A program made the position numbers and the translations under genes. The notes below the pieces were generated by a model. It made no database searches, was not told the DNA's origin, and saw nothing but the letters and a program-made list of their open reading frames with translations. Positions 38,909 to 48,586 of a DNA stretch of 64,000 bases are shown here, piece after piece. Source of the stretch: Candidatus Taylorbacteria bacterium RIFCSPHIGHO2_01_FULL_46_22b (GTDB lineage Bacteria > Patescibacteriota > Minisyncoccia > Phycocordibacterales > DSPV01); the NCBI GenBank assembly GCA_001820875.1, contig MHRF01000004.1:17434-81433 (forward strand). The letters are read 5' to 3'. Positions within the stretch are counted from its first letter, which is position 1, and every line of letters starts with the position of its first letter.

Positions 38909-39520
38909 CTACTTAGCCGTGCTCAAAAAAGAATAATCTAGATATTCTTTTTTGAGTCCCTCTCTCCCACTTGCGGTTAGAGAAGAGCCGAGGGCGTCTA
39001 AATAAAACCTCATACCTTCCATAATAAACCTAAACTTCTCAATATGTCTTTTCAAAAACTCAGCAGAAGAGATAGCCTTTCGTAACTCTGAATGACGATT
39101 CCCTTCTTCCGTGTAAATCGTAGAGATTGAATGTCCGTGTAGTAGCTGATTACGTATTGATGAGAAATCTTTGAGCTTTTCAATAATTTGATGATACTGG
39201 CTAGCTATTTCTAGCTTCCCAGAGAAATCAAAATTTGATGTGTAAACAAACATCGTAACCTTGTCACGGAAAGAGACGTTATCTAAGTTTTTCATTATCT
39301 TGAACTCATCGATTTCTTTTTTTATGGTCGGAATAACTATATGTCTAAACAAGGCATTGATCCCAATCTCCAGAACAAGATGGAGGGCGATAAGGAAATC
39401 TATTATTTCCTCCTCTGCTAGGGTCTTCTTTTGTAAGAGTCGATGGCACCTCTCTCGGTTAGAGTGTAAAAGGTAGACATGTTCCGTTCTTGCTTTCACT
39501 GAGACATTTATTTGGATCAT
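38909..39520 (-). CDS. Hypothetical protein with an HEPN-like Rx4H motif
   Basis: RNQLLHGH in the C-terminal third. Alpha-helical. Overlaps the upstream Ymh-family gene by 4 nt (ATGA). Confidence 0.4.
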   Translation of the reverse strand: MIQINVSVKARTEHVYLLHSNRERCHRLLQKKTLAEEEIIDFLIALHLVLEIGINALFRHIVIPTIKKEIDEFKIMKNLDNVSFRDKVTMFVYTSNFDFSGKLEIASQYHQIIEKLKDFSSIRNQLLHGHSISTIYTEEGNRHSELRKAISSAEFLKRHIEKFRFIMEGMRFYLDALGSSLTASGREGLKKEYLDYSFLSTAK

Positions 39521-40233
39521 TGTATTGAGTCAACAATTCTAAGGAGAGTATTCGCAATATGAATGATGTCAGCCGCCTCACGTGGATCGGTAAGATTCAC
39601 ATAGCGGTGGCTTGAGGGATTCTTGTAAGTACCTATCGCTCCAGAGAACAACTCCATACGAGCTTGCTGTTCAGCAGGATGTGCAGTTTTATCGACAAGC
39701 GGAGCAGAAGGAGGACCAAACGCTTTCCTCATGAGGTCAACACCAATCTCTTTTTCTGAGAGACCTGCCTTTGTTCGTACGCGTACCTCTACTTCCTTGA
39801 ACGCCTGAAAGATGGCAGTATCATAGTCACCTCTTATGAATGATTGTTTTACTTTCCTCACAAGGATAGAATCAAGACCATCTGATGGAAGTAAATATCC
39901 TTGCCGGTAGGTATCAAAATCTTGAGAGTCAAGTACTTTCTTGCCTCTGTGTGTTATAAACATCCAATCATTATTTCCTGGCTGTGGTGCAATAAAAAGT
40001 TCTTTTTCTAGCCACATCCATGCAACGGAAAAGCGTTCAAGAACCGATTGTCCTTGTTTATAGGATCCAGCCCAATCAACAAACTCTCTATCTGTACCTA
40101 ACAAGAAATTATGACGATTGAGTTTACCTTGTTCTGCCCTACCAAGATGTTTTAGGACAAGAGGAGCAAGTTCCTCCGGCTCCATCTCAAGGACAGCCTC
40201 TGGAAGTGGATATATTTCTGAATAAAGTGACAT
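39517..40233 (-). CDS. TIGR02391 / Hypoth_Ymh-family protein
   Basis: The C-terminal ~120 aa (LMRKAFGPPSAPLVDK...ELFSGAIGTYKNPSSHRYVNLTDPREAADIIHIANTLLRIVD) match the Hypoth_Ymh consensus. Confidence 0.6.
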   Translation of the reverse strand: MSLYSEIYPLPEAVLEMEPEELAPLVLKHLGRAEQGKLNRHNFLLGTDREFVDWAGSYKQGQSVLERFSVAWMWLEKELFIAPQPGNNDWMFITHRGKKVLDSQDFDTYRQGYLLPSDGLDSILVRKVKQSFIRGDYDTAIFQAFKEVEVRVRTKAGLSEKEIGVDLMRKAFGPPSAPLVDKTAHPAEQQARMELFSGAIGTYKNPSSHRYVNLTDPREAADIIHIANTLLRIVDSIQ

Positions 40234-40293
40234 TTTGGAATAATACCATTCTCTAGTATGTGGTGCCTTTCAAAATCCTAAATATCTTTGAAA

Positions 40294-40719
40294 TTACAAC
40301 CATCTAGCTACGCCCCCATGATGGGAACAGGTGCCGCGTCTGCTTTGGCTGAAGCTGTAGGTCCCATCTCGGCATTGCGCTGTCGCACCTGCTGGGATGG
40401 ATGGAGCGTAGGCTGGAGAATGTACGGTATTGCCTGCGCTATTGGTGTAGTAATTGTCGTTTGAAAGAGGTGTTTGTTCTGAAGGTTCTGGCTGATTCGG
40501 AGCGATCTGTTTTACCGGAACAGAAGGACTCGGTGCTACCTGACTTACTTGTGCTGTATTGAAGGAGTTTATTGCCGCCGTAGAGTCTTGAACTGACCTA
40601 GTTTGGCTACTTGAATCGCCAAAGGCTCCAAGGAGCACTATAAGCCCGAAAAACGCTATAGGTATGATATAACGCTTCTTTTGGTACCATTTCCTCGTTT
40701 TTCGATCCTGTGTAGCCAT
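40294..40719 (-). CDS. DUF3761 domain protein, membrane-anchored
   Basis: C-terminal CRDGTYSFSQSRRGTCSHHGGV is the DUF3761 signature. Confidence 0.7.
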   Translation of the reverse strand: MATQDRKTRKWYQKKRYIIPIAFFGLIVLLGAFGDSSSQTRSVQDSTAAINSFNTAQVSQVAPSPSVPVKQIAPNQPEPSEQTPLSNDNYYTNSAGNTVHSPAYAPSIPAGATAQCRDGTYSFSQSRRGTCSHHGGVARWL

Positions 40720-40795
40720 AATGCTTTTGCAAGCACCATACTAGGCATGGGGAGAGAAAAAGCAAGAACTCTTAGAGTGGAGATAAATCCTCCAA

Positions 40796-41878
40796 TTATT
40801 CAGAAAAGAAAGAATCGCTTATTTCATCGGCAATAAAACCTGAAAATCCACCCCCGCGCATTTCAATCCGAGTTGGAAACATTTCCAGAGAATCTTTGAT
40901 ATGTTTTGCAATTCGCTCTGCACTTTCAATAGTACTAGAAACTACTAGCAACTTATAGCCCATTGAAGGAAGAAGCTTTTTTAGATTTTGAAGTAAGAGC
41001 TGATCACCGGCTTTCCAGCCAATGACAAGAATCCGGTCTACTTGGGGTAAATCGATAAGAAGCCGCTGAATATGTTCGGGGTGACAGATATAACGATCTT
41101 TTCCAAGAAGAGGTATTGCAATGGCTGGAAGTTCAATGAAATCATTTCTTTCACTATGTTCTTTTAGCTCATCTTGGTGGTAAAGCCCAACATCTTTTTT
41201 CCGGTGTTCTTCTAAGAAATCAGGATTTTTTATACACCATGAAAAACCGTCAATTTCCTCCGGTGAAGTACCGTACTCTATATTGGATTTTCGGTGTATA
41301 TACGCCCAATCATGCGACCCGTGGAGTTTTATAATCTTTAGACCACCCTCTAAATAATCCCGCATCCTCTTGAATGTTCTATGTGGAATGCTCTGCTCAA
41401 ACAAACTATCGTAGTTGAATGTCGCAACAAGCGCTTTTCCGCTCGTATGGGTGTTTATGCGGTTTACAAGAGATTTGTAGTTATTGACCTGCCGCGCCTT
41501 CTGGAAATCTTCCTCGGAAAGCGGAGATAAACCCCTATTAGAAATTTCCTTGAAAAGTGCCTGTAAATAAAACTCCAGCGCAACGAAATGCACTCTCATC
41601 TGCTCAGAATGTTTTGTGCGCTCTTTTATTTCAGTAAGTACCTCTTCAAAGCCACGTTTCTTTTCTTTTACTTGAAGAAGTATGTCTGACAGGAGATCGC
41701 CAGCTCCGGGGTACTTTCCAAGTAACGTATGCAAGAGAAAGTGGTCCTCCACTAAGTCTTTCGTTAGAGGTCCAACTTTTGCTATCGGTGAATAATCGTA
41801 TGAAGCTCCAGCACCGAGGATAATAAGTGGGTAAGCCATTACATTGGCTATATTACTCCTTAGAGAATCTCCCGCCAA
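40796..41878 (-). CDS. SIR2_2-family protein (standalone SIR2-like, defense-associated family)
   Basis: LIILGAGASYD (the GAGxS motif), TFNYDSLFE (cf. TTNYDxLLE) and KLHGSHDW, as in ThsA/DSR-type SIR2 domains. Confidence 0.75.
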   Translation of the reverse strand: MAGDSLRSNIANVMAYPLIILGAGASYDYSPIAKVGPLTKDLVEDHFLLHTLLGKYPGAGDLLSDILLQVKEKKRGFEEVLTEIKERTKHSEQMRVHFVALEFYLQALFKEISNRGLSPLSEEDFQKARQVNNYKSLVNRINTHTSGKALVATFNYDSLFEQSIPHRTFKRMRDYLEGGLKIIKLHGSHDWAYIHRKSNIEYGTSPEEIDGFSWCIKNPDFLEEHRKKDVGLYHQDELKEHSERNDFIELPAIAIPLLGKDRYICHPEHIQRLLIDLPQVDRILVIGWKAGDQLLLQNLKKLLPSMGYKLLVVSSTIESAERIAKHIKDSLEMFPTRIEMRGGGFSGFIADEISDSFFSE

Positions 41879-41895
41879 GCATAAAAGCAGGACGA

Positions 41896-42093
41896 CTAAG
41901 TGACTAGGTTGAGAAAGTCCATCACCGCGGCCGGATCCTCGTTCTCGTCCAGCCGGCTCGCCACCCTCTTCAAAGCTTCCTGGTACTCTGGTTTCCGGAC
42001 CTTCGCCAGCAATTCCTCTATCTCCTCCATTGAGGGAACGTTCTGTTTTTGTATCAATTCTTGCATCTTTTTTACTCCGACATGTCTAGCCAA
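41896..42093 (-). CDS. Small acidic hypothetical protein (65 aa)
   Basis: ORF only. Coupled to the SIR2-like gene. Confidence 0.3.
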   Translation of the reverse strand: MARHVGVKKMQELIQKQNVPSMEEIEELLAKVRKPEYQEALKRVASRLDENEDPAAVMDFLNLVT

Positions 42094-42851
42094 TCCTGAA
42101 TCGCCTGGCGCGCCTCCGGAGACGGGTTCCGTCCCGCTTCGTTCACCCTCTCGCCGTCCTTCTTGAGCAATTCTCTCCGCTCGCTTGGACTGGGCTTTTC
42201 TAATTGCATTTTCTCTTTTGTAAGTTCTGGGTCGTATGTTGACATCTTATCCGTCATCTCTAGGTACTCCTTTACCCTCGCCCTTGATTCTGGGGAGTGG
42301 AGTCTCTCGGTATTCCGACGAGCTAACTCGCGGGATTCTGATTCCGTCATTCCGCCCTTGTACACCTTTTCGTTTTGTTCCACCTTTTTCGCTTCTTGAG
42401 GAAACACAAACCCAAAGTATTCATTTACTCTTCCTTTTTCAATTTGTTGTTCTTTTGGTATCACTCCTATCTCAATCAAAAAATGGTAGACTCCTATTTT
42501 CTCAAGGGGATGCCATTTTTTACTTACTATCTCAGATAACACACCCGAAACATTTCTCTTTTCTAAAATACATCGAGCAGTTTGTTTGCCCTTTGCCAAA
42601 ATGCCCGATCTAAATATACGTTGAGCCTTTCTCTCTTCATGCTCATGATGTAATCTCTCATTTTCCTTTTCTATCATCATCTTATAATGCTCTTGTGTAG
42701 AGAAATATGCCAAAGCTATACCGGTCCCAAAGACGATACCCATTTGCCAGTTTGTAATTGCCAAGGACAAAGAAATGACAGTAGCTATAGCAAGAGCGAT
42801 AAAGAAGATTACTTTTAGCGCCTTCCACATAACATTATCTTCTTGCACCAT
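42072..42851 (-). CDS. Hypothetical membrane protein with a charged coiled-coil C-terminus
   Basis: Two N-terminal TM helices followed by a K/E-rich region. Confidence 0.45.
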   Translation of the reverse strand: MVQEDNVMWKALKVIFFIALAIATVISLSLAITNWQMGIVFGTGIALAYFSTQEHYKMMIEKENERLHHEHEERKAQRIFRSGILAKGKQTARCILEKRNVSGVLSEIVSKKWHPLEKIGVYHFLIEIGVIPKEQQIEKGRVNEYFGFVFPQEAKKVEQNEKVYKGGMTESESRELARRNTERLHSPESRARVKEYLEMTDKMSTYDPELTKEKMQLEKPSPSERRELLKKDGERVNEAGRNPSPEARQAIQDWLDMSE

Positions 42852-43275
42852 GTCCCCAATTATCTTCGACCGGAACGTCTTTTTTTACCTTTGATACCCA
42901 CTCAGCATGAAGAAAACTCTCAGCAAAATAAAATAAAGTCATCAAGATCGTTATACGAGCCATTGAAGCTGTAAAACCGACTGCGCTTACTATAAAGGTC
43001 GCTTCGCTACGTCCAACGAGTAAAAAGATACTGACTAGAAAGAATATCCCACCTAGCAGAGCACACAACAGACCTTTCTTATAATATTTACCCTTCACCC
43101 AAGGAATATGAGAGAGGAGAATATCTAAAATAACCAGCACGCTTATACCGAGCGGGAGGGCTAGGATAATACCCACGGTATCATTGGGGGCGATTAGTAT
43201 TCCAAGTAACCAGATTGGAGCACTCCATGTCCAAACTTTTTTCCAAAGGATTTTCTTATTTTTCATGGGAGGCAT
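42835..43275 (-). CDS. Hypothetical polytopic membrane protein
   Basis: 146 aa with 4 TM helices. Confidence 0.45.
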   Translation of the reverse strand: MPPMKNKKILWKKVWTWSAPIWLLGILIAPNDTVGIILALPLGISVLVILDILLSHIPWVKGKYYKKGLLCALLGGIFFLVSIFLLVGRSEATFIVSAVGFTASMARITILMTLFYFAESFLHAEWVSKVKKDVPVEDNWGHGARR

Positions 43276-43765: not shown

Positions 43766-44605
43766 ATGAATACAAACTCTGATCGCGGTATATTCGCTCT
43801 GAGTGTTTCAGAGCTCGGTCCGACATTGGGAGCGCTTCAAAAGCATGGTGTTACCGTGGCACATCTCGATATGCTCCGTGCCAACAACGGCGACAACGAC
43901 TACGCTAAACGGTTTGCCCAAGCTCTCACCCTCAAGGCCTTCGAAACTTCAACCGACACCCGCATCGCGCGGCTCGTCCTCGGCAAGTCATTTGTTGACG
44001 TCGCCGACTGGGTGACCCTCTACGGAGCTCGGTTCAGCAGGAAGGAAGTGCACCAGGCGCTCAAGTTCCCGTGGCACGAAGATATTCTGATGGGTCCTTG
44101 CCCCTTCAATCCGGGCAAGCTCGTCAAGGACACACACACCGCGTTTCTGGGGCTAGAGAAACTCAACGGCTCGCCGCTCAATGTCATGAAGTGGAACGAA
44201 CTGCACCCGAAGAAGGACGACCTCCAGCCTCGGATGTACTGCGACCCGAACCCCTGGTACGCAACCGAGAAACACACGACAGAAGTCCTGCTCCAACCCC
44301 GCTGGTACCTCATGCTCACCGAAATCGTCCCGGACTCATGGAACAAACTCCCTGAAGAGCAGGAACAAATGCTCCCCAAGGAGTACGAAATCCCGACGAC
44401 CGTCGCCGAAACCACGAAGGACCTCCTGGTTTTCCGAAAGACCGACATACGTCCTAACCCGACACGTTGGGCACGTTGCGCCGAGAAGACCTCGGTCGGC
44501 CTCCTCTCGTGCGTTGGCGTCTTCGACGAGTGTGGCCTCCTCGTCGACTTCTGGCTCGGCTACCGCCACGACTTTGTGGGCCTTGGTGCCTCCCGGAAGT
44601 TCTGA
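43766..44605 (+). CDS. DGR target (variable) protein with a C-terminal variable repeat
   Basis: The last ~35 codons are the VR, matched by the downstream TR except at TR adenines. No signal peptide. Confidence 0.8.
   Translation: MNTNSDRGIFALSVSELGPTLGALQKHGVTVAHLDMLRANNGDNDYAKRFAQALTLKAFETSTDTRIARLVLGKSFVDVADWVTLYGARFSRKEVHQALKFPWHEDILMGPCPFNPGKLVKDTHTAFLGLEKLNGSPLNVMKWNELHPKKDDLQPRMYCDPNPWYATEKHTTEVLLQPRWYLMLTEIVPDSWNKLPEEQEQMLPKEYEIPTTVAETTKDLLVFRKTDIRPNPTRWARCAEKTSVGLLSCVGVFDECGLLVDFWLGYRHDFVGLGASRKF
44490..44596 (+). repeat. DGR variable repeat (VR)
   Basis: 107-bp alignment to the TR with about 19 mismatches. Every mismatch is at a TR adenine, mostly in AAC codons. The 3' IMH-like GC-rich end is identical. 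Confidence 0.85.
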
Positions 44606-44645
44606 ACCTCGAACACTTGAGGGCTTGCCCCTCTTGATTCCCTTG

Positions 44646-44684
44646 AGCCCTCGCGCAAATTTTTTGCGAGGGCTCTTTTCTTTT
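44646..44684 (+). terminator. GC-rich hairpin plus T-run downstream of the VR
   Basis: AGCCCTCGC...GCGAGGGCT then CTTTTCTTTT. Could be a terminator or a DGR homing-enhancing hairpin. Confidence 0.55.
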
Positions 44685-44964
44685 ACATGCTACAATAATC
44701 GCATCCTGCTAATGCAGATTGGATTACGGTTCAATCTCGCGGGGTGTCTCACCTTTGAGATTCGCCAGAATGCCCTTGGTTTACGGATCAGGACAGCGTG
44801 CGAGGAAGGATGAAGATTTTACTTCTTGTTCGTTTCTAGCGGAGGTGTTTCCGAAAGGAAACTGCTCCCGAATAAAATTCAGGACTGAGAGGATATAGGT
44901 GGGCGAAAGCTTGCGGTAAACCTCAAGGTTCGGTGCCTTGGACGGAAGCGGACAACATTTCGCG

Positions 44965-45071
44965 ACTCGGACGGCAACCTCTCGTGCGTTGGCAACTTCG
45001 ACGAGAATGGCCTCAACGTCAACAACTGGAACGGCAACCGCAACGACAATGTGGGCCTTGGTGCCTCCCGG
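44965..45071 (+). repeat. DGR template repeat (TR), noncoding
   Basis: Adenine-rich (AAC)n-containing copy of the VR. The in-frame ORF across it is a translation artefact. Confidence 0.85.
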
Positions 45072-45122
45072 CAGTCATCTCTTCGCCGAGAAGAAGCCTG
45101 CCATGTGGCGGGCTTCTTTGTA

Positions 45123-45473
45123 TCATCGCTCTTTAGATGATCTTATCCATCCTCCGAGCATCCTGCCAATCTCATCAAGGCTCACCTCAATGGAGACGTA
45201 CCGCTTCCCGTCAATCGCTTTGACGTCCTTTGCAAGTCGGACGAACACACGCAAGAAGTTGAGTTTGAGACTCGTCTTCTCAAGAATAGGAACTTTCTCT
45301 GCTTTACCTATTTGGCTTGCCAATAGGATTCCCTCCAACACCTCAAGCAACAGCTCCTCGCATTTCTGCCAAACGGTGTAACGGTCCTGTTTGGGGATGC
45401 TAGAGCGATAGGTGTGGAAGGATTTGTATAGATCGTACGTTTTCTTGAAAATTGGGATGTCTAAATCATGCAT
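45123..45473 (-). CDS. avd: Accessory variability determinant (Avd, four-helix-bundle protein)
   Basis: 116 aa. The C-terminus EIGRMLGGWIRSSKER resembles BPP-1 bAvd VGRILGSWIARVNRK. Basic helical bundle. Confidence 0.75.
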   Translation of the reverse strand: MHDLDIPIFKKTYDLYKSFHTYRSSIPKQDRYTVWQKCEELLLEVLEGILLASQIGKAEKVPILEKTSLKLNFLRVFVRLAKDVKAIDGKRYVSIEVSLDEIGRMLGGWIRSSKER

Positions 45474-45478
45474 GGTAT

Positions 45479-46528
45479 ATGAAAATTTATAGGGACGTAT
45501 ATGCGCGAATGATCTCTCCAGAAAACCTCTTTCGGGCGTGGAAGGTATTCAAGGAGAATAAGCGCAACAAAGTGGATGTAATGGAATTTGAAATAAATCT
45601 TGAGAAAGAAATTTTCAAGTTGCACCGAGAACTGAAAGACAGGACGTACCACCACGGTCCTTATAGCGGGTTTTGGATTCGCGATCCGAAGTTGCGACGC
45701 ATACATAAAGCGACGGTACGCGACAGAGTTTTGCATCATGCGGTGTTTAGAATTCTCAACCCGATTTTTGAGCCAACATTCATTGCCAATTCGTTTTCGT
45801 GCCGCATCGGTAAAGGGACACATAAAGGGATGAGGAAGGTTGCCGAGATGATTCGCGCGAAAAGTGGTAACTACACACGGGAATGTTTTGCGTTGAAATG
45901 CGATATACGAAAATTCTTTGACTCTATCGATCACGATATTCTGCTCCGGATTCTTGAGAAGAAAGTTGTGGACAAGAGGATGCTGTGGCTCCTGCGCGAA
46001 ATCATCGAGAGCTTCACCGCGAGCAGACCGAACCTCTTTGACCGACATGGTGTACCCATCGGCAATCTGACGTCTCAAATATTTGCCAATATTTACATGA
46101 ACGAATTTGATCAGTTTATAAAACATGCCTTGCATGTAAAAGACTACGCAAGATACACGGACGACTTCGTGATTATTTCGAATGACAGAAAATATCTTGA
46201 GTACCTGCTTGAACCCATACGTGAATATCTTTCGCATACGTTGCACATTGAACTTCACCCGCACAAGATTCTGTTGCGAGAGTGTAAGCGTGGTATTGAT
46301 TTTTTGGGTTACGTTATATTGCCACATCATATTGTAGTGAGGAAGAAAACAAAGCAGAGAGTTCTCAGAAAACTACGGGAACGCGTCGCTCAATATCGAA
46401 ACGGAAATATCAAAGAAGAAACCCTCTGGGGATCGCTTAGCTCGTACCTAGGCGTTCTCTCTCATGCGGATGCCTACAAGTTGACAGAGGAGACACTAAA
46501 CAATTTCTGGTTTTGGCTGAAAGAGTGA
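45479..46528 (+). CDS. DGR reverse transcriptase
   Basis: RT motifs 1-7: RRIHKA, DIRKFFDSIDHD, VPIGNLTSQIFANIYMNEFD (the DGR-specific IGxxxSQ), YARYTDDFVII, KRGIDFLGY. No maturase or endonuclease domains. Confidence 0.9.
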   Translation: MKIYRDVYARMISPENLFRAWKVFKENKRNKVDVMEFEINLEKEIFKLHRELKDRTYHHGPYSGFWIRDPKLRRIHKATVRDRVLHHAVFRILNPIFEPTFIANSFSCRIGKGTHKGMRKVAEMIRAKSGNYTRECFALKCDIRKFFDSIDHDILLRILEKKVVDKRMLWLLREIIESFTASRPNLFDRHGVPIGNLTSQIFANIYMNEFDQFIKHALHVKDYARYTDDFVIISNDRKYLEYLLEPIREYLSHTLHIELHPHKILLRECKRGIDFLGYVILPHHIVVRKKTKQRVLRKLRERVAQYRNGNIKEETLWGSLSSYLGVLSHADAYKLTEETLNNFWFWLKE

Positions 46529-47677: not shown

Positions 47678-48199
47678 ATGGAGCTGAAACTAAAACTTAG
47701 ATTCAAGAGGAATAACGGCTGGTTCTTTATTCACAACAGAGAGGCTGAAAGAATTGGCAATGCTTTTGGCGCTATTGGCTTAGCGGTGTATATTTTTCTT
47801 TGCAGGAGATCTGATCTCAAGACACAAAAGTGCCATCCAAGCCAAAAGAGAACTGGCAAAGATATACAAAAAAGTGCTAAGTGCGTCCAAAAATACATAA
47901 GACTTTTCCAAGAAGCTCGAATAATAGGTATTGAGAGAGGAAAACACGGAGGGAGGTGGCTAAATAACACCTATACCCTAATAGATATGAGCGAGTGGCT
48001 AATACCAGAGGAAATAAGTTCCTCTGGTAAGAGCAAAGACTCTCGATCTCCACCAGAGGAAAATAATGCCGCTAACCAAGGGCAATACATTCCCCGTAAG
48101 GAGACTCTAATAAATAAGGAAAACAATGTATGCAAAAAAGAAAATCAAGAGTTGATAGAAGGAAGAAGAAAACTAGCGCAAAAGTGGAGAACGTCCTAA
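47678..48199 (+). CDS. Hypothetical HTH / replication-organiser-like protein (weak)
   Basis: Possibly a winged-helix N-terminal region (FFIHNREAERIGNAFGAIGLAVY). Low confidence. Confidence 0.35.
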   Translation: MELKLKLRFKRNNGWFFIHNREAERIGNAFGAIGLAVYIFLCRRSDLKTQKCHPSQKRTGKDIQKSAKCVQKYIRLFQEARIIGIERGKHGGRWLNNTYTLIDMSEWLIPEEISSSGKSKDSRSPPEENNAANQGQYIPRKETLINKENNVCKKENQELIEGRRKLAQKWRTS

Positions 48200-48552
48200 A
48201 GAATCCTAGATGGGAACTCTTCTGCCGATACTATTCTGGAAATCCTGAAAGTATCGGGAACGCAACAAAGGCATATATGCTGGCATATAACCTTCCCCAA
48301 AATACCTATGGAACTGCCAACAAGAACGCATATCGGTTGATGGTAAATGAGGGTATTTTGAGGCGCATAGAAGAGCTCCAAGAGGTGTACATGAAAAAGG
48401 TTGATTTTGAGCTAGCGTTTGTCATTGGACAGAGAAAAAATCTTGCCGCAAAAGTTGCCGCTCTCAAGGAGTTCTACAGGAAATCTCCTAGGGTCAATGG
48501 GGGTATAAAAAAATCGCAGGAAGTCACTTTTCGATGGCTTGAGGATAAATAA
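48130..48552 (+). CDS. Terminase small subunit-like protein (Terminase_2/P27-like HTH)
   Basis: NPRWELFCRYYSG...NATKAYMLAY...RRIEELQ resembles the phage TerS N-terminal DNA-binding domain. The start codon is uncertain. Confidence 0.45.
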   Translation: MQKRKSRVDRRKKKTSAKVENVLKNPRWELFCRYYSGNPESIGNATKAYMLAYNLPQNTYGTANKNAYRLMVNEGILRRIEELQEVYMKKVDFELAFVIGQRKNLAAKVAALKEFYRKSPRVNGGIKKSQEVTFRWLEDK

Positions 48553-48586
48553 AAGCAATCTAAGATAAAAAGAGTAAAATAAATCT

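Follow-up and report, generated by a model that had tools for sequence, protein, structure and literature searches.

We lean towards reading the genes at 38909-43275 of the window, the whole 64,000-nt stretch of DNA analyzed here, as containing a small defence-island patch on an integrated element of a Candidatus Taylorbacteria (CPR) genome, made of three single-gene predicted immunity genes that are independently mobile. They encode a short SIR2-like protein, a Ymh-family protein, and a 203-aa protein (H203). In other genomes these genes are separate and travel independently, therefore we regard them as neighbours within an island rather than a single conserved system, and take their adjacency as the product of island accretion. 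The defence flavour that the initial annotation had seen in the SIR2-like and HEPN genes is supported. An ORF check recovered all the reading frames proposed there for 38909-43275, at the same coordinates and all on the minus strand. The features of the region are:

38909..39520, minus strand: 203-aa protein (H203), from a CPR-restricted HEPN-fold family without Pfam model, with an invariant RNxLLHGH
39517..40233, minus strand: Ymh/TIGR02391-family HEPN protein, 238 aa (Pfam and NCBIfam above cutoff, homologue alignment)
40294..40719, minus strand: DUF3761 protein (PF12587, E 3e-26)
40796..41839, minus strand: short, stand-alone SIR2-like gene of the 'sirim' type, 347 aa
41896-42093, minus strand: 65-aa orphan ORF, no family match
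42072-42851, minus strand: 259-aa orphan ORF, no family match, initially described as a membrane protein
42835-43275, minus strand: 146-aa orphan ORF, no family match, initially described as a membrane protein
43766..46528, mixed strands: adjacent diversity-generating retroelement (DGR)
43766-44605, plus strand: DGR target gene, with the variable repeat at 44491-44600
44966-45075: DGR template repeat
45123-45473, minus strand: bAvd of the DGR (bAvd profile match)
45452-46528, plus strand: reverse transcriptase of the DGR (RVT_1 match)
47678-48199, plus strand: replication-initiator-like (Rep-like) gene
48130-48552, plus strand: small-terminase-like gene (weak)
48587-50353, plus strand: large serine recombinase (Resolvase, Recombinase, and Zn_ribbon_recom matches)

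The region is flanked by the serine recombinase and the DGR. The repeat pair of the latter spans 110 nt with 83% identity, and its mismatches lie at adenines of the template copy. A match to phrog_270 (E 9e-6) was found within the mobile-element gene set (47678..50353). Because a large serine recombinase, a Rep-like gene, and a DGR lie next door, the region looks like an integrated element, in agreement with the carriage on a mobile element proposed initially. There are no tRNAs anywhere in the window that could mark a tRNA integration site. Between 38300 and 43800, we found 11 promoter-like sites for 10.6 expected in shuffled sequence, and 10 terminator-like sites for 5.1 expected (sd 2.3); the latter, though commoner than expected, did not delimit transcription units. 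We also considered a viral origin of the SIR2-like and 203-aa families and abandoned it, as pattern scans of IMG/VR returned relatives of neither; they returned two contigs with Ymh.

The SIR2-like protein carries the motifs GAGAS (22-26), FNYD (154-157), and KLHGS (184-188). Across 35 family members, G22, A23, G24, A25, Y156, D157, K184, H186, and G187 are invariant and S26, F154, and N155 nearly so, which confirms the GAGxS, NYD-type, and KLHGS motifs noticed at the outset. The assignment to the SIR2_2 family stood in part: the Pfam model (PF13289) scores 19.5 bits, under its cutoff of 24.5 (E 1.1e-3), and around one-fifth of the listed homologues have a precomputed match to it. Besides the motifs, we base the SIR2 call not on the Pfam score but on the PADLOC SIR2 model PDLC04087, which matches 26 of the 35 members (best E 1e-13), and on the match of the family profile to the PDB entry 8w9l, the SIR2 of SIR2-HerA (E 7e-4). 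The protein has the SIR2 Rossmann fold, an intact GAGAS NAD loop of the GAGxS type, and intact catalytic positions N155, D157, and H186, with the Asn and His equivalent to N112 and H152 of ThsA. It has only two cysteines and no CxxC pairs, and hence no zinc-binding site, and DSSP assigned nine strands to its model, not all of them confirmed as central sheet. It thus shows both criteria of the sirims, which have no zinc-binding site and at least seven beta-strands (10.1101/2024.09.18.613514). The initial length of 360 aa corresponds to the mechanical ORF reaching TTG 41878; since all homologues and the NCBI record begin with M-x-Y-P, the true start is most likely ATG 41839, giving 347 aa. The family comprises 1,705 cluster representatives at E<=1e-30, of which the best 150 have 191-406 aa, mostly 310-406 aa, as expected from a single-domain family. 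Its distribution is patchy, and we found no paper on stand-alone SIR2 proteins of CPR.

We analyzed the neighbours of the SIR2-like gene in 80 GTDB loci, using ORF calling and all-against-all BLAST clustering; gene calls in these loci and in those of the 203-aa gene came from a crude purpose-made ORF picker. No neighbour is conserved among the 77 other loci with a called SIR2-like gene, and no neighbour cluster occurs in more than eight of the 80 loci, so we rejected the existence of a conserved partner. The DUF3761 gene was identified correctly (PF12587, 92 bits for a cutoff of 29, residues 79-140), and its product has an N-terminal hydrophobic segment, probably membrane-spanning. Outside the window, it adjoins the SIR2-like gene just once (L019), which led us to discard it as a partner; it is a neighbour that nothing links to a defence function. 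The 65-, 259-, and 146-aa proteins were discarded for the same role, since phmmer found no homologue of them in the 77 other SIR2-like loci or in 78 H203 loci. The median same-strand gap upstream of the SIR2-like gene is 126 nt, against 42 nt in the background, consistent with the gene having its own promoter.

The commonest immediate neighbours of the SIR2-like gene are restriction-modification (R-M) families. It is found directly upstream of hsdR in four loci (L017, L018, L020, L041), three of which have hsdS directly upstream of it (L017, L018, L041), and near type IIG/ISP enzymes in four others (L004, L005, L012, L044). Single loci have a methylase and MutH-like pair (L009), NERD (L008), or an AAA_21 ATPase (L001). 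At least 14 of 78 loci, mostly from the closest CPR relatives, have an R-M or defence gene within 8 kb, as a raw count with no matched background, and the closest homologue (P0002) adjoins a 588-aa serine recombinase and a type III R-M system. Many loci have ordinary contexts: LepA adjoins the gene in 4 Acidobacteria loci, DnaK lies next to it or no more than 1.5 kb away in three loci, and Peptidase_M23 and copper genes flank it in another (P0005). A 12-fold enrichment in the vicinity of defence systems has been reported for the sirim clade (10.1101/2024.09.18.613514).

The 203-aa protein had been linked to HEPN by its RNQLLHG, an Rx4H motif. This motif is present, and R123, N124, L126, L127, H128, G129, and H130 are invariant in 32 homologues. 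The fold is that expected of HEPN, a four-helix up-down bundle with an insert between helices 2 and 3. The motif lies at the end of the helix 112-127, with H128 just beyond it, and E51 is invariant in the helix 36-65. Hence, the protein has an Rx4-6H at the end of helix 3, a polar residue after the arginine, and an acidic residue in helix 2, as described for HEPN domains (PMC3710099). While the fold and motif uphold the HEPN call, no HMM of the Pfam HEPN families does. Searches with Pfam, NCBIfam, PADLOC, and PDB profiles, and hhalign against Ymh, gave nothing significant for the family; HEPN_Swt1 matches just 2 of 32 members at E 0.013, phrog_5483 is the sole marginal match (E 7e-4), and there was no sequence match to PDB chains. 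We conclude that the protein is the founder of a new CPR-restricted HEPN-fold family with no Pfam model. The gene upstream of the 203-aa gene has the same orientation in 64 of 67 loci, compared with 283 of 392 background pairs (p 5e-6), and the median upstream gap is 12 nt against 38 nt (with a p of only 0.04 in the gap test). The 203-aa gene usually closes a putative operon, and the genes that precede it fall into at least 36 families, many of which are defence families (36 clusters among 53 non-window loci with a gap of at most 60 nt, or 37 among 54 including the window). Upstream genes include type IIG R-M, DpnII, Vsr, PD-(D/E)XK, a HerA-like ATPase, AAA_21, AAA_14-DUF4143, and a caspase, and CBASS genes lie just upstream in one locus (L082).

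The Ymh protein matches both PF09509 (86.9 bits, cutoff 25, E 1.2e-24) and TIGR02391 (65.3 bits, cutoff 39.45), as claimed. Its suspected place within HEPN is also correct: Ymh is listed as a HEPN family, described as solo or fused, 'in operon with R-M', and with a conserved Rx4-6H (PMC3710099). Residues 1-118 form an N-terminal domain without Pfam match and residues 119-233 the HEPN domain, whose motif K204-N-P-S-S-H209 has a lysine instead of the canonical arginine. Of 17 aligned homologues, 16 have K at this first position and one has R; the histidine is retained, as is the polar residue that follows the basic one. The protein is extremely conserved and found across phyla; in one locus (L159) it adjoins an MmeI enzyme.

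The Ymh stop codon and the start codon of the 203-aa gene overlap by 4 nt (ATGA), exactly as reported initially. One might thus see here a genuine two-HEPN module, either a heterodimeric RNase or a toxin with its regulator. HEPN RNases act as dimers (PMC3710099), the overlap would couple translation, and in a heterodimer the canonical RNxLLH of the 203-aa protein would complement the variant KNPSSH motif of Ymh. Elsewhere, a second gene that differs between loci sometimes begins 3-9 nt after Ymh, coding for a 236-aa unknown (L159) or SLFN_AlbA_2 (L161). However, the 236-aa gene is unrelated to the 203-aa family, Ymh is solo in two of its 5 loci, and the two families share no profile similarity. 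In these data, the pairing is seen at this locus alone: a phmmer search with Ymh was blank in the 78 other 203-aa loci, which made us reject a conserved pair, none of the 5 Ymh loci has the 203-aa gene, and the latter follows the many other gene families counted above. A two-HEPN module is therefore unlikely. A single multi-component abortive-infection system made of all seven co-directional genes (43275 to 38909), in which the small acidic and membrane proteins would sense or regulate for SIR2 and HEPN effectors, is extremely unlikely. The seven ORFs do lie on one strand with short gaps or overlaps, including the ATGA, but such tight packing is the background, where 72% of adjacent pairs are same-strand with a median gap of 38 nt. 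No cluster of neighbours is conserved, the orphan proteins recur in none of the SIR2-like and H203 loci and DUF3761 recurs once, and the three defence-type genes are apart in every other examined locus. Hence, the one-system reading is largely refuted by the comparative data, and the 'minimal module' of the initial annotation falls with it.

The functions of the individual genes can also be questioned. The SIR2-like family might not be immune and instead be a housekeeping or regulatory NAD-dependent protein-modifying enzyme, such as a deacylase or a SirTM-like ADP-ribosyltransferase. We find this rather unlikely, given the missing zinc-binding cysteine cluster, motifs of the SIR2_2 type (NYD, KLHGS) and not of the sirtuin type, top fold and profile matches to defence SIR2s, a patchy distribution, hypervariable neighbourhoods, and insertion inside type I R-M operons. 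As for the 203-aa protein, a non-catalytic RNA- or ligand-binding regulator (MtlR-type HEPN-like), or an antitoxin-like partner with no nuclease activity, is very unlikely, as R123, N124, H128, and the helix-2 E51 are invariant in 32 of 32 sequences and non-catalytic HEPN families typically lose Rx4-6H (PMC3710099).

If the locus is a patch of three independent immunity genes, the SIR2-like protein would belong to the immune ('sirim', SIR2_2-like) branch of the SIR2 superfamily and work as a self-contained enzyme, presumably an NAD+ hydrolase that is inactive until infection. It would probably be activated by oligomerisation or direct binding of a phage product, and the resulting NAD+ depletion would abort the infection. 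Ymh would be of the HEPN RNase type, cleaving RNA upon activation, with its N-terminal domain presumably acting as sensor or regulator. The 203-aa gene could be a co-transcribed terminal 'rider' acting as a back-up suicidal RNase. A joint reading, doubtful but worth stating, extends this to both families, with the 203-aa family as a CPR-wide 'rider' HEPN RNase and the short SIR2-like protein as a self-sufficient, partner-free NADase. The former would be the last cistron of unrelated defence operons (R-M, nucleases, HerA-like/ABC-type ATPases, caspase, and here Ymh) and a shared, previously unrecognised back-up suicide effector; the latter would unite sensor and effector in one NADase. Both families would then be signs of a repertoire of minimal immune genes that fits ultra-small genomes.

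CPR/Patescibacteria are thought to hold few recognised defence systems. With standard tools, the three predicted immunity proteins of the region are annotated as 'hypothetical' or 'TIGR02391 family'. Should the short SIR2-like proteins, with more than 1,700 sequence clusters, prove to be autonomous NADases, one must ask what keeps a SIR2 with neither partner nor sensor inactive and what then activates it. A true RNase activity of the 203-aa family would mean that current profile libraries have missed a HEPN family, one that would provide a clean natural example of a 'second-line suicide nuclease behind R-M'. With both ideas wrong, the region would be an ordinary variable island.

Among known systems, the 'rider' idea is close to what Anantharaman et al. 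proposed for R-M-linked HEPN nucleases. Unlike R-M-linked nucleases of the PrrC/RloC type, the 203-aa gene is separate and small, has no ATPase domain, and stands behind many kinds of upstream genes. Its product also differs from this type, from HEPN-MNT toxins, from DUF86/YutE, and from the C-terminal HEPN of AbiA in that no sequence-profile link connects it to any Pfam HEPN family, to Ymh, or to any PDB chain. It also differs from HEPN-MNT toxin-antitoxins in having no adjacent antitoxin; no minimal nucleotidyltransferase antitoxin was found among the window genes or 21 sampled upstream partners. The 238-aa protein belongs by HMM to the Ymh family of Anantharaman et al. 2013, but its subfamily has K-N-x3-H in place of R-N-x3-H, and its 118-aa N-terminal domain has no match among Pfam models. 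The PADLOC model of the PD-lambda-3 B subunit weakly matches its HEPN domain (E 5.5e-5, residues 129-235). PD-lambda-3 of E. coli behaves as an abortive-infection system (PMC13190303) and is reported with a PD-(D/E)XK nuclease. We rejected membership of this system, because the B-model match is far too weak and neither the PD-lambda-3_A model nor PD-(D/E)XK Pfam families matched any of the ten window proteins scanned.

As the initial annotation stated, the SIR2-like gene has no SLOG, TIR, HerA, or pAgo partner in the window by profile scans. In SIR2-HerA (Nezha / Gao_19), SIR2 depends on HerA for assembly and activation. The window protein is only 13-18% identical to that SIR2 subunit and has no adjacent HerA/DUF87 gene; DUF87 is absent from the window and from the 25 commonest families of the 141 immediate neighbours in the 77 loci. 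Thoeris ThsA, DSR1/DSR2, SPARSA SIR2-APAZ, and Avs5 SIR2-STAND all have a fused sensor or regulatory domain (SLOG/Macro, a large C-terminal sensor, APAZ, STAND) or an obligatory partner (ThsB, pAgo), and the window protein has neither. Unlike ThsA of Thoeris (ThsA/ThsB), it is a single domain without SLOG/Macro, and window genes have no TIR/SLOG matches; DSR1/DSR2, with their large C-terminal sensor, have ~1,000 aa against its 347; and, in contrast to SPARSA, there is no APAZ or pAgo match at the window, the weak Aga_SIR2 matches being limited to the SIR2 core. The PADLOC single-gene candidate PDC-S25 is likewise stand-alone, and its model matches 4 of the 35 family members (best E 7e-6). Stand-alone sirims such as human FAM118B (SIRanc) are also single-domain proteins of ~350 aa from the immune SIR2 branch with catalytic N and H, and FAM118B is an NADase active only under oligomerising conditions (10.1101/2024.09.18.613514).

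The minus strand from 43275 to 38909 carries an array of seven open reading frames (ORFs):

42835-43275, minus strand: 146-aa orphan, described in the initial annotation as a membrane protein
42072-42851, minus strand: 259-aa orphan, likewise described there as a membrane protein
41896-42093, minus strand: 65-aa orphan, acidic
40796-41878, minus strand: SIR2-like protein, 360 aa as an ORF
40294-40719, minus strand: DUF3761 protein, 141 aa
39517-40233, minus strand: Ymh protein, 238 aa
38909-39520, minus strand: protein of a new HEPN family, 203 aa

We focused on the SIR2-like, Ymh and 203-aa proteins, each of which has database entries with 100% identity from the source of the window, a metagenome-assembled genome of a Candidatus Taylorbacteria (CPR/Patescibacteria). 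The reported ATGA overlap of the Ymh and 203-aa genes is indeed present in the sequence. The 259-aa orphan has a C-terminal motif in two copies, SPESRARVKEYLEM and SPEARQAIQDWLDM, and none of the fetched loci encodes a homologue of it.

The array is adjoined upstream by the following features:

43766-46528: complete diversity-generating retroelement (DGR), immediately upstream of the array
44491-44600: variable repeat of 110 nt in the DGR target gene (279 aa)
44966-45075: DGR template repeat, 83% identical to the variable repeat, with its adenines accounting for essentially all mismatches
45123-45473, minus strand: bAvd, overlapping the reverse transcriptase gene at its start
45452-46528: reverse transcriptase, completing the DGR
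47678-50353: beyond the DGR, a gene resembling replication initiators (phrog_270, E 9e-6), an ORF weakly similar to small terminases and a 588-aa large serine recombinase

The initial annotation had suggested that the array could be carried on a mobile element, a remark supported by the DGR, the replication-initiator-like gene and the serine recombinase found near it. The region from around 38.5 to 50.4 kb has the appearance of an integrated element. There are no tRNAs in the window and nothing distinctive in the composition. In L165, the locus of the closest SIR2-like homologue (P0002), the gene likewise has a 588-aa serine recombinase alongside, together with a type III restriction-modification (R-M) system.

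The most probable start codon of the SIR2-like gene is the ATG at 41839, for a protein of 347 aa; all homologues and the NCBI record open with M-x-Y-P-L-I-I. Its catalytic motifs are intact: G22, A23, G24 and A25 (GAGAS), Y156 and D157 (FNYD), and K184, H186 and G187 (KxHGS) are invariant in 35 family members, and S26, F154 and N155 are kept in at least 90% of them. The PADLOC SIR2 model PDLC04087 matched 26 of the 35 (best E 1e-13), and the family profile retrieved a single PDB sequence, 8w9l, the SIR2 of a SIR2-HerA system (E 7e-4), with NYD and KLHGS aligned. These results uphold the SIR2_2 identity proposed in the initial annotation. The absence of a SIR2_2 hit had been named there as evidence against it, and on this point the outcome is borderline, since the Pfam SIR2_2 model scored 19.5 bits, below its threshold of 24.5. 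The protein has two cysteines, lacks the zinc module and has nine strands by DSSP, which fits the published criteria for "sirim" proteins, the immune (SIR2_2-like) branch, and not classical sirtuins (10.1101/2024.09.18.613514). Hence, we file it on the SIR2_2/sirim side of the SIR2 superfamily, where it makes up a separate, distant family with 13-18% identity to solved structures.

An exhaustive profile search showed that the family is large: 4,816 cluster representatives passed E<=1e-3, of which 1,705 passed E<=1e-30. The best 150 representatives are short (191-406 aa, mostly 310-406 aa) and nearly all aligned end to end; the family is not characterised by fusions. Neighbourhoods were compared in 80 loci taken from GTDB species genomes, with ORFs predicted by a simple greedy picker and neighbouring genes grouped through BLAST. 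No neighbour cluster occurred in more than 8 of these loci, homologues of the 65-aa, 259-aa and 146-aa proteins were absent from every one, and a DUF3761 gene adjoined the SIR2-like gene elsewhere only once (L019). The upstream same-strand gap is long (median 126 nt, against 42 nt in the background), and strand agreement with the upstream gene is at background level. Hence, the gene behaves as an autonomous single-gene unit.

Among its closest relatives, which are from CPR, a type of neighbourhood nevertheless recurs. The SIR2-like gene is directly 5' of hsdR in type I R-M operons in L017 (11-4662), L018, L020 and L041, with gaps of 0-3 nt, and in L017, L018 and L041 it is wedged between hsdS, directly upstream, and hsdR. 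Type IIG/ISP enzymes adjoin it in L004, L005, L012 and L044; it follows a methylase and MutH-like nuclease pair in L009 and precedes a NERD nuclease in L008. In L001 (6457-9053), a 521-aa AAA_21/AAA_15 (OLD/AbiEii-like) ATPase stops 2 nt before the gene, and this lineage could have a two-gene ATPase and SIR2 variant. Mobile contexts include phage tail genes around the gene in L043 and nearby tyrosine integrases. R-M families are the commonest Pfam matches among 141 immediate neighbours, and in at least 14 of 78 loci, nearly all from the closest relatives, a gene for R-M or defence lies no more than 8 kb away (a BLAST lower bound).

The Ymh protein is a clear member of PF09509/TIGR02391, described as HEPN with a conserved Rx4-6H, solo or fused, and "in operon with R-M" (Anantharaman et al., PMC3710099). 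This confirms the placement of Ymh within HEPN that the initial annotation had proposed. Residues 204-209 read K-N-P-S-S-H instead of R-N-x3-H in 16 of the 17 aligned members, i.e., a Lys replaces the canonical Arg. The best 120 of at least 1,341 matches to the full-length protein share 56-100% identity with it from end to end, and among the matches listed over 100 clusters belonging to different phyla are 56-84% identical; a protein of Bradyrhizobium acaciae (P0191, in L160) reaches 72%. Such conservation is unusually high for a defence-island gene and suggests a recent and wide horizontal spread across phyla. We looked at the contexts of five Ymh loci. The gene adjoins an MmeI enzyme in L159, where a 236-aa gene unrelated to the 203-aa family lies 3 nt downstream; it is solo in L160, with a serine recombinase alongside, and solo in a phage-like region in L163. 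L161 and L162 share the order integrase, Ymh, SLFN_AlbA_2, reverse transcriptase. In L161 (3061-7354) these are a tyrosine integrase, Ymh, a 401-aa Schlafen-like SLFN_AlbA_2 protein 9 nt downstream and a convergent 466-aa reverse transcriptase, a further mobile defence-type cassette around the same Ymh gene.

The 203-aa protein matched no Pfam, NCBIfam or PADLOC model. Its family is small: a set of 5.8 billion proteins contains 63 members, and tblastn confirmed 75 stretches from 74 loci of JGI metagenomes. All of the few entries with an organism name are from Patescibacteria. The motif residues R123, N124, L126, L127, H128, G129 and H130 never vary, and neither do E13, N21, D41, H47, E51, N55, D80 and K87. 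Across 78 loci besides the window, the gene shares the strand of its upstream neighbour in 64 of 67 cases (background: 283 of 392 pairs; Fisher p 5e-6), and the upstream gap is short (median 12 nt vs 38 nt, p 0.04), while the downstream one is long (median 83 nt). The upstream genes fall into 36 clusters in the 53 non-window loci with gaps of at most 60 nt. Sampled partners include type IIG R-M, DpnII, Vsr, two kinds of PD-(D/E)XK nuclease, HerA-like and SMC/AAA_21 ATPases, AAA_14-DUF4143, a Peptidase_C14 of caspase type, DUF5677, PRiA4_ORF3, an Ltp lipoprotein and, in contrast to these, a GDP-mannose dehydratase. In L081 (3214-5633) and L089 (4181-6600), a 594-aa caspase-like Peptidase_C14 precedes the gene by 2 nt, which could make a protease and RNase pair. 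L082 (158-9796) is a dense defence island of CPR with a type IIG R-M, CBASS-like SMODS/AGS_C and SLATT_4, the 203-aa gene, HEPN_AbiV, an HTH protein and a reverse transcriptase; L097 is arranged in the same way. Given its tight same-strand placement behind such diverse genes, the family appears to be an add-on placed last in the operons of many defence genes.

These observations bear on how the array may work. The analysis shows the folds and the intact motifs, the independence of the three genes, the defence- and mobile-type surroundings, and the layouts of the SIR2-like gene (autonomous) and the 203-aa gene (operon-terminal); the activities that follow are predicted. The SIR2-like protein would be an NADase kept inactive and, by analogy with FAM118B (a human stand-alone sirim), Avs5 and SIR2-HerA assemblies, switched on when it oligomerises or binds a phage product directly. 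Not all of its neighbourhoods favour defence, several being ordinary: lepA is upstream in four Acidobacteria loci, DnaK adjoins the gene in two and is around 1.3 kb off in a third, and P0005 is found with peptidase and copper genes. One of the two most serious alternatives is a housekeeping role for this family, which we consider unlikely.

The Ymh and 203-aa proteins are predicted to be metal-independent RNases working as dimers. The other serious alternative is that they form a heterodimer, the canonical RNxLLH of one complementing the K-variant motif of the other. Ymh is upstream of the 203-aa gene in the window and in none of the 78 other loci, and such a heterodimer seems quite improbable. 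The pairing looks like one instance of the add-on habit rather than a dedicated two-gene system; the 203-aa gene may be co-transcribed with whichever gene precedes it, its product serving as a second-line suicidal nuclease. Together with the lack of a conserved SIR2-like neighbour, the window-only pairing argues against the single abortive-infection module first proposed: the three genes are independent.

Compared with known systems, the finding is not categorically new, since all the domains come from superfamilies already known to act in defence and the cluster does not form a system. The HEPN domain of Ymh weakly matched the PADLOC PD-lambda-3_B model (E 5.5e-5), a lead only; PD-lambda-3 is an abortive-infection system (PMC13190303). 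What is new is a large, partner-less and uncharacterised family of short SIR2 proteins centred on CPR, a HEPN family unmatched by the profile libraries tried and with an unusual, promiscuous operon-terminal habit, and a K-for-R Ymh subfamily found across phyla at around 70% identity.
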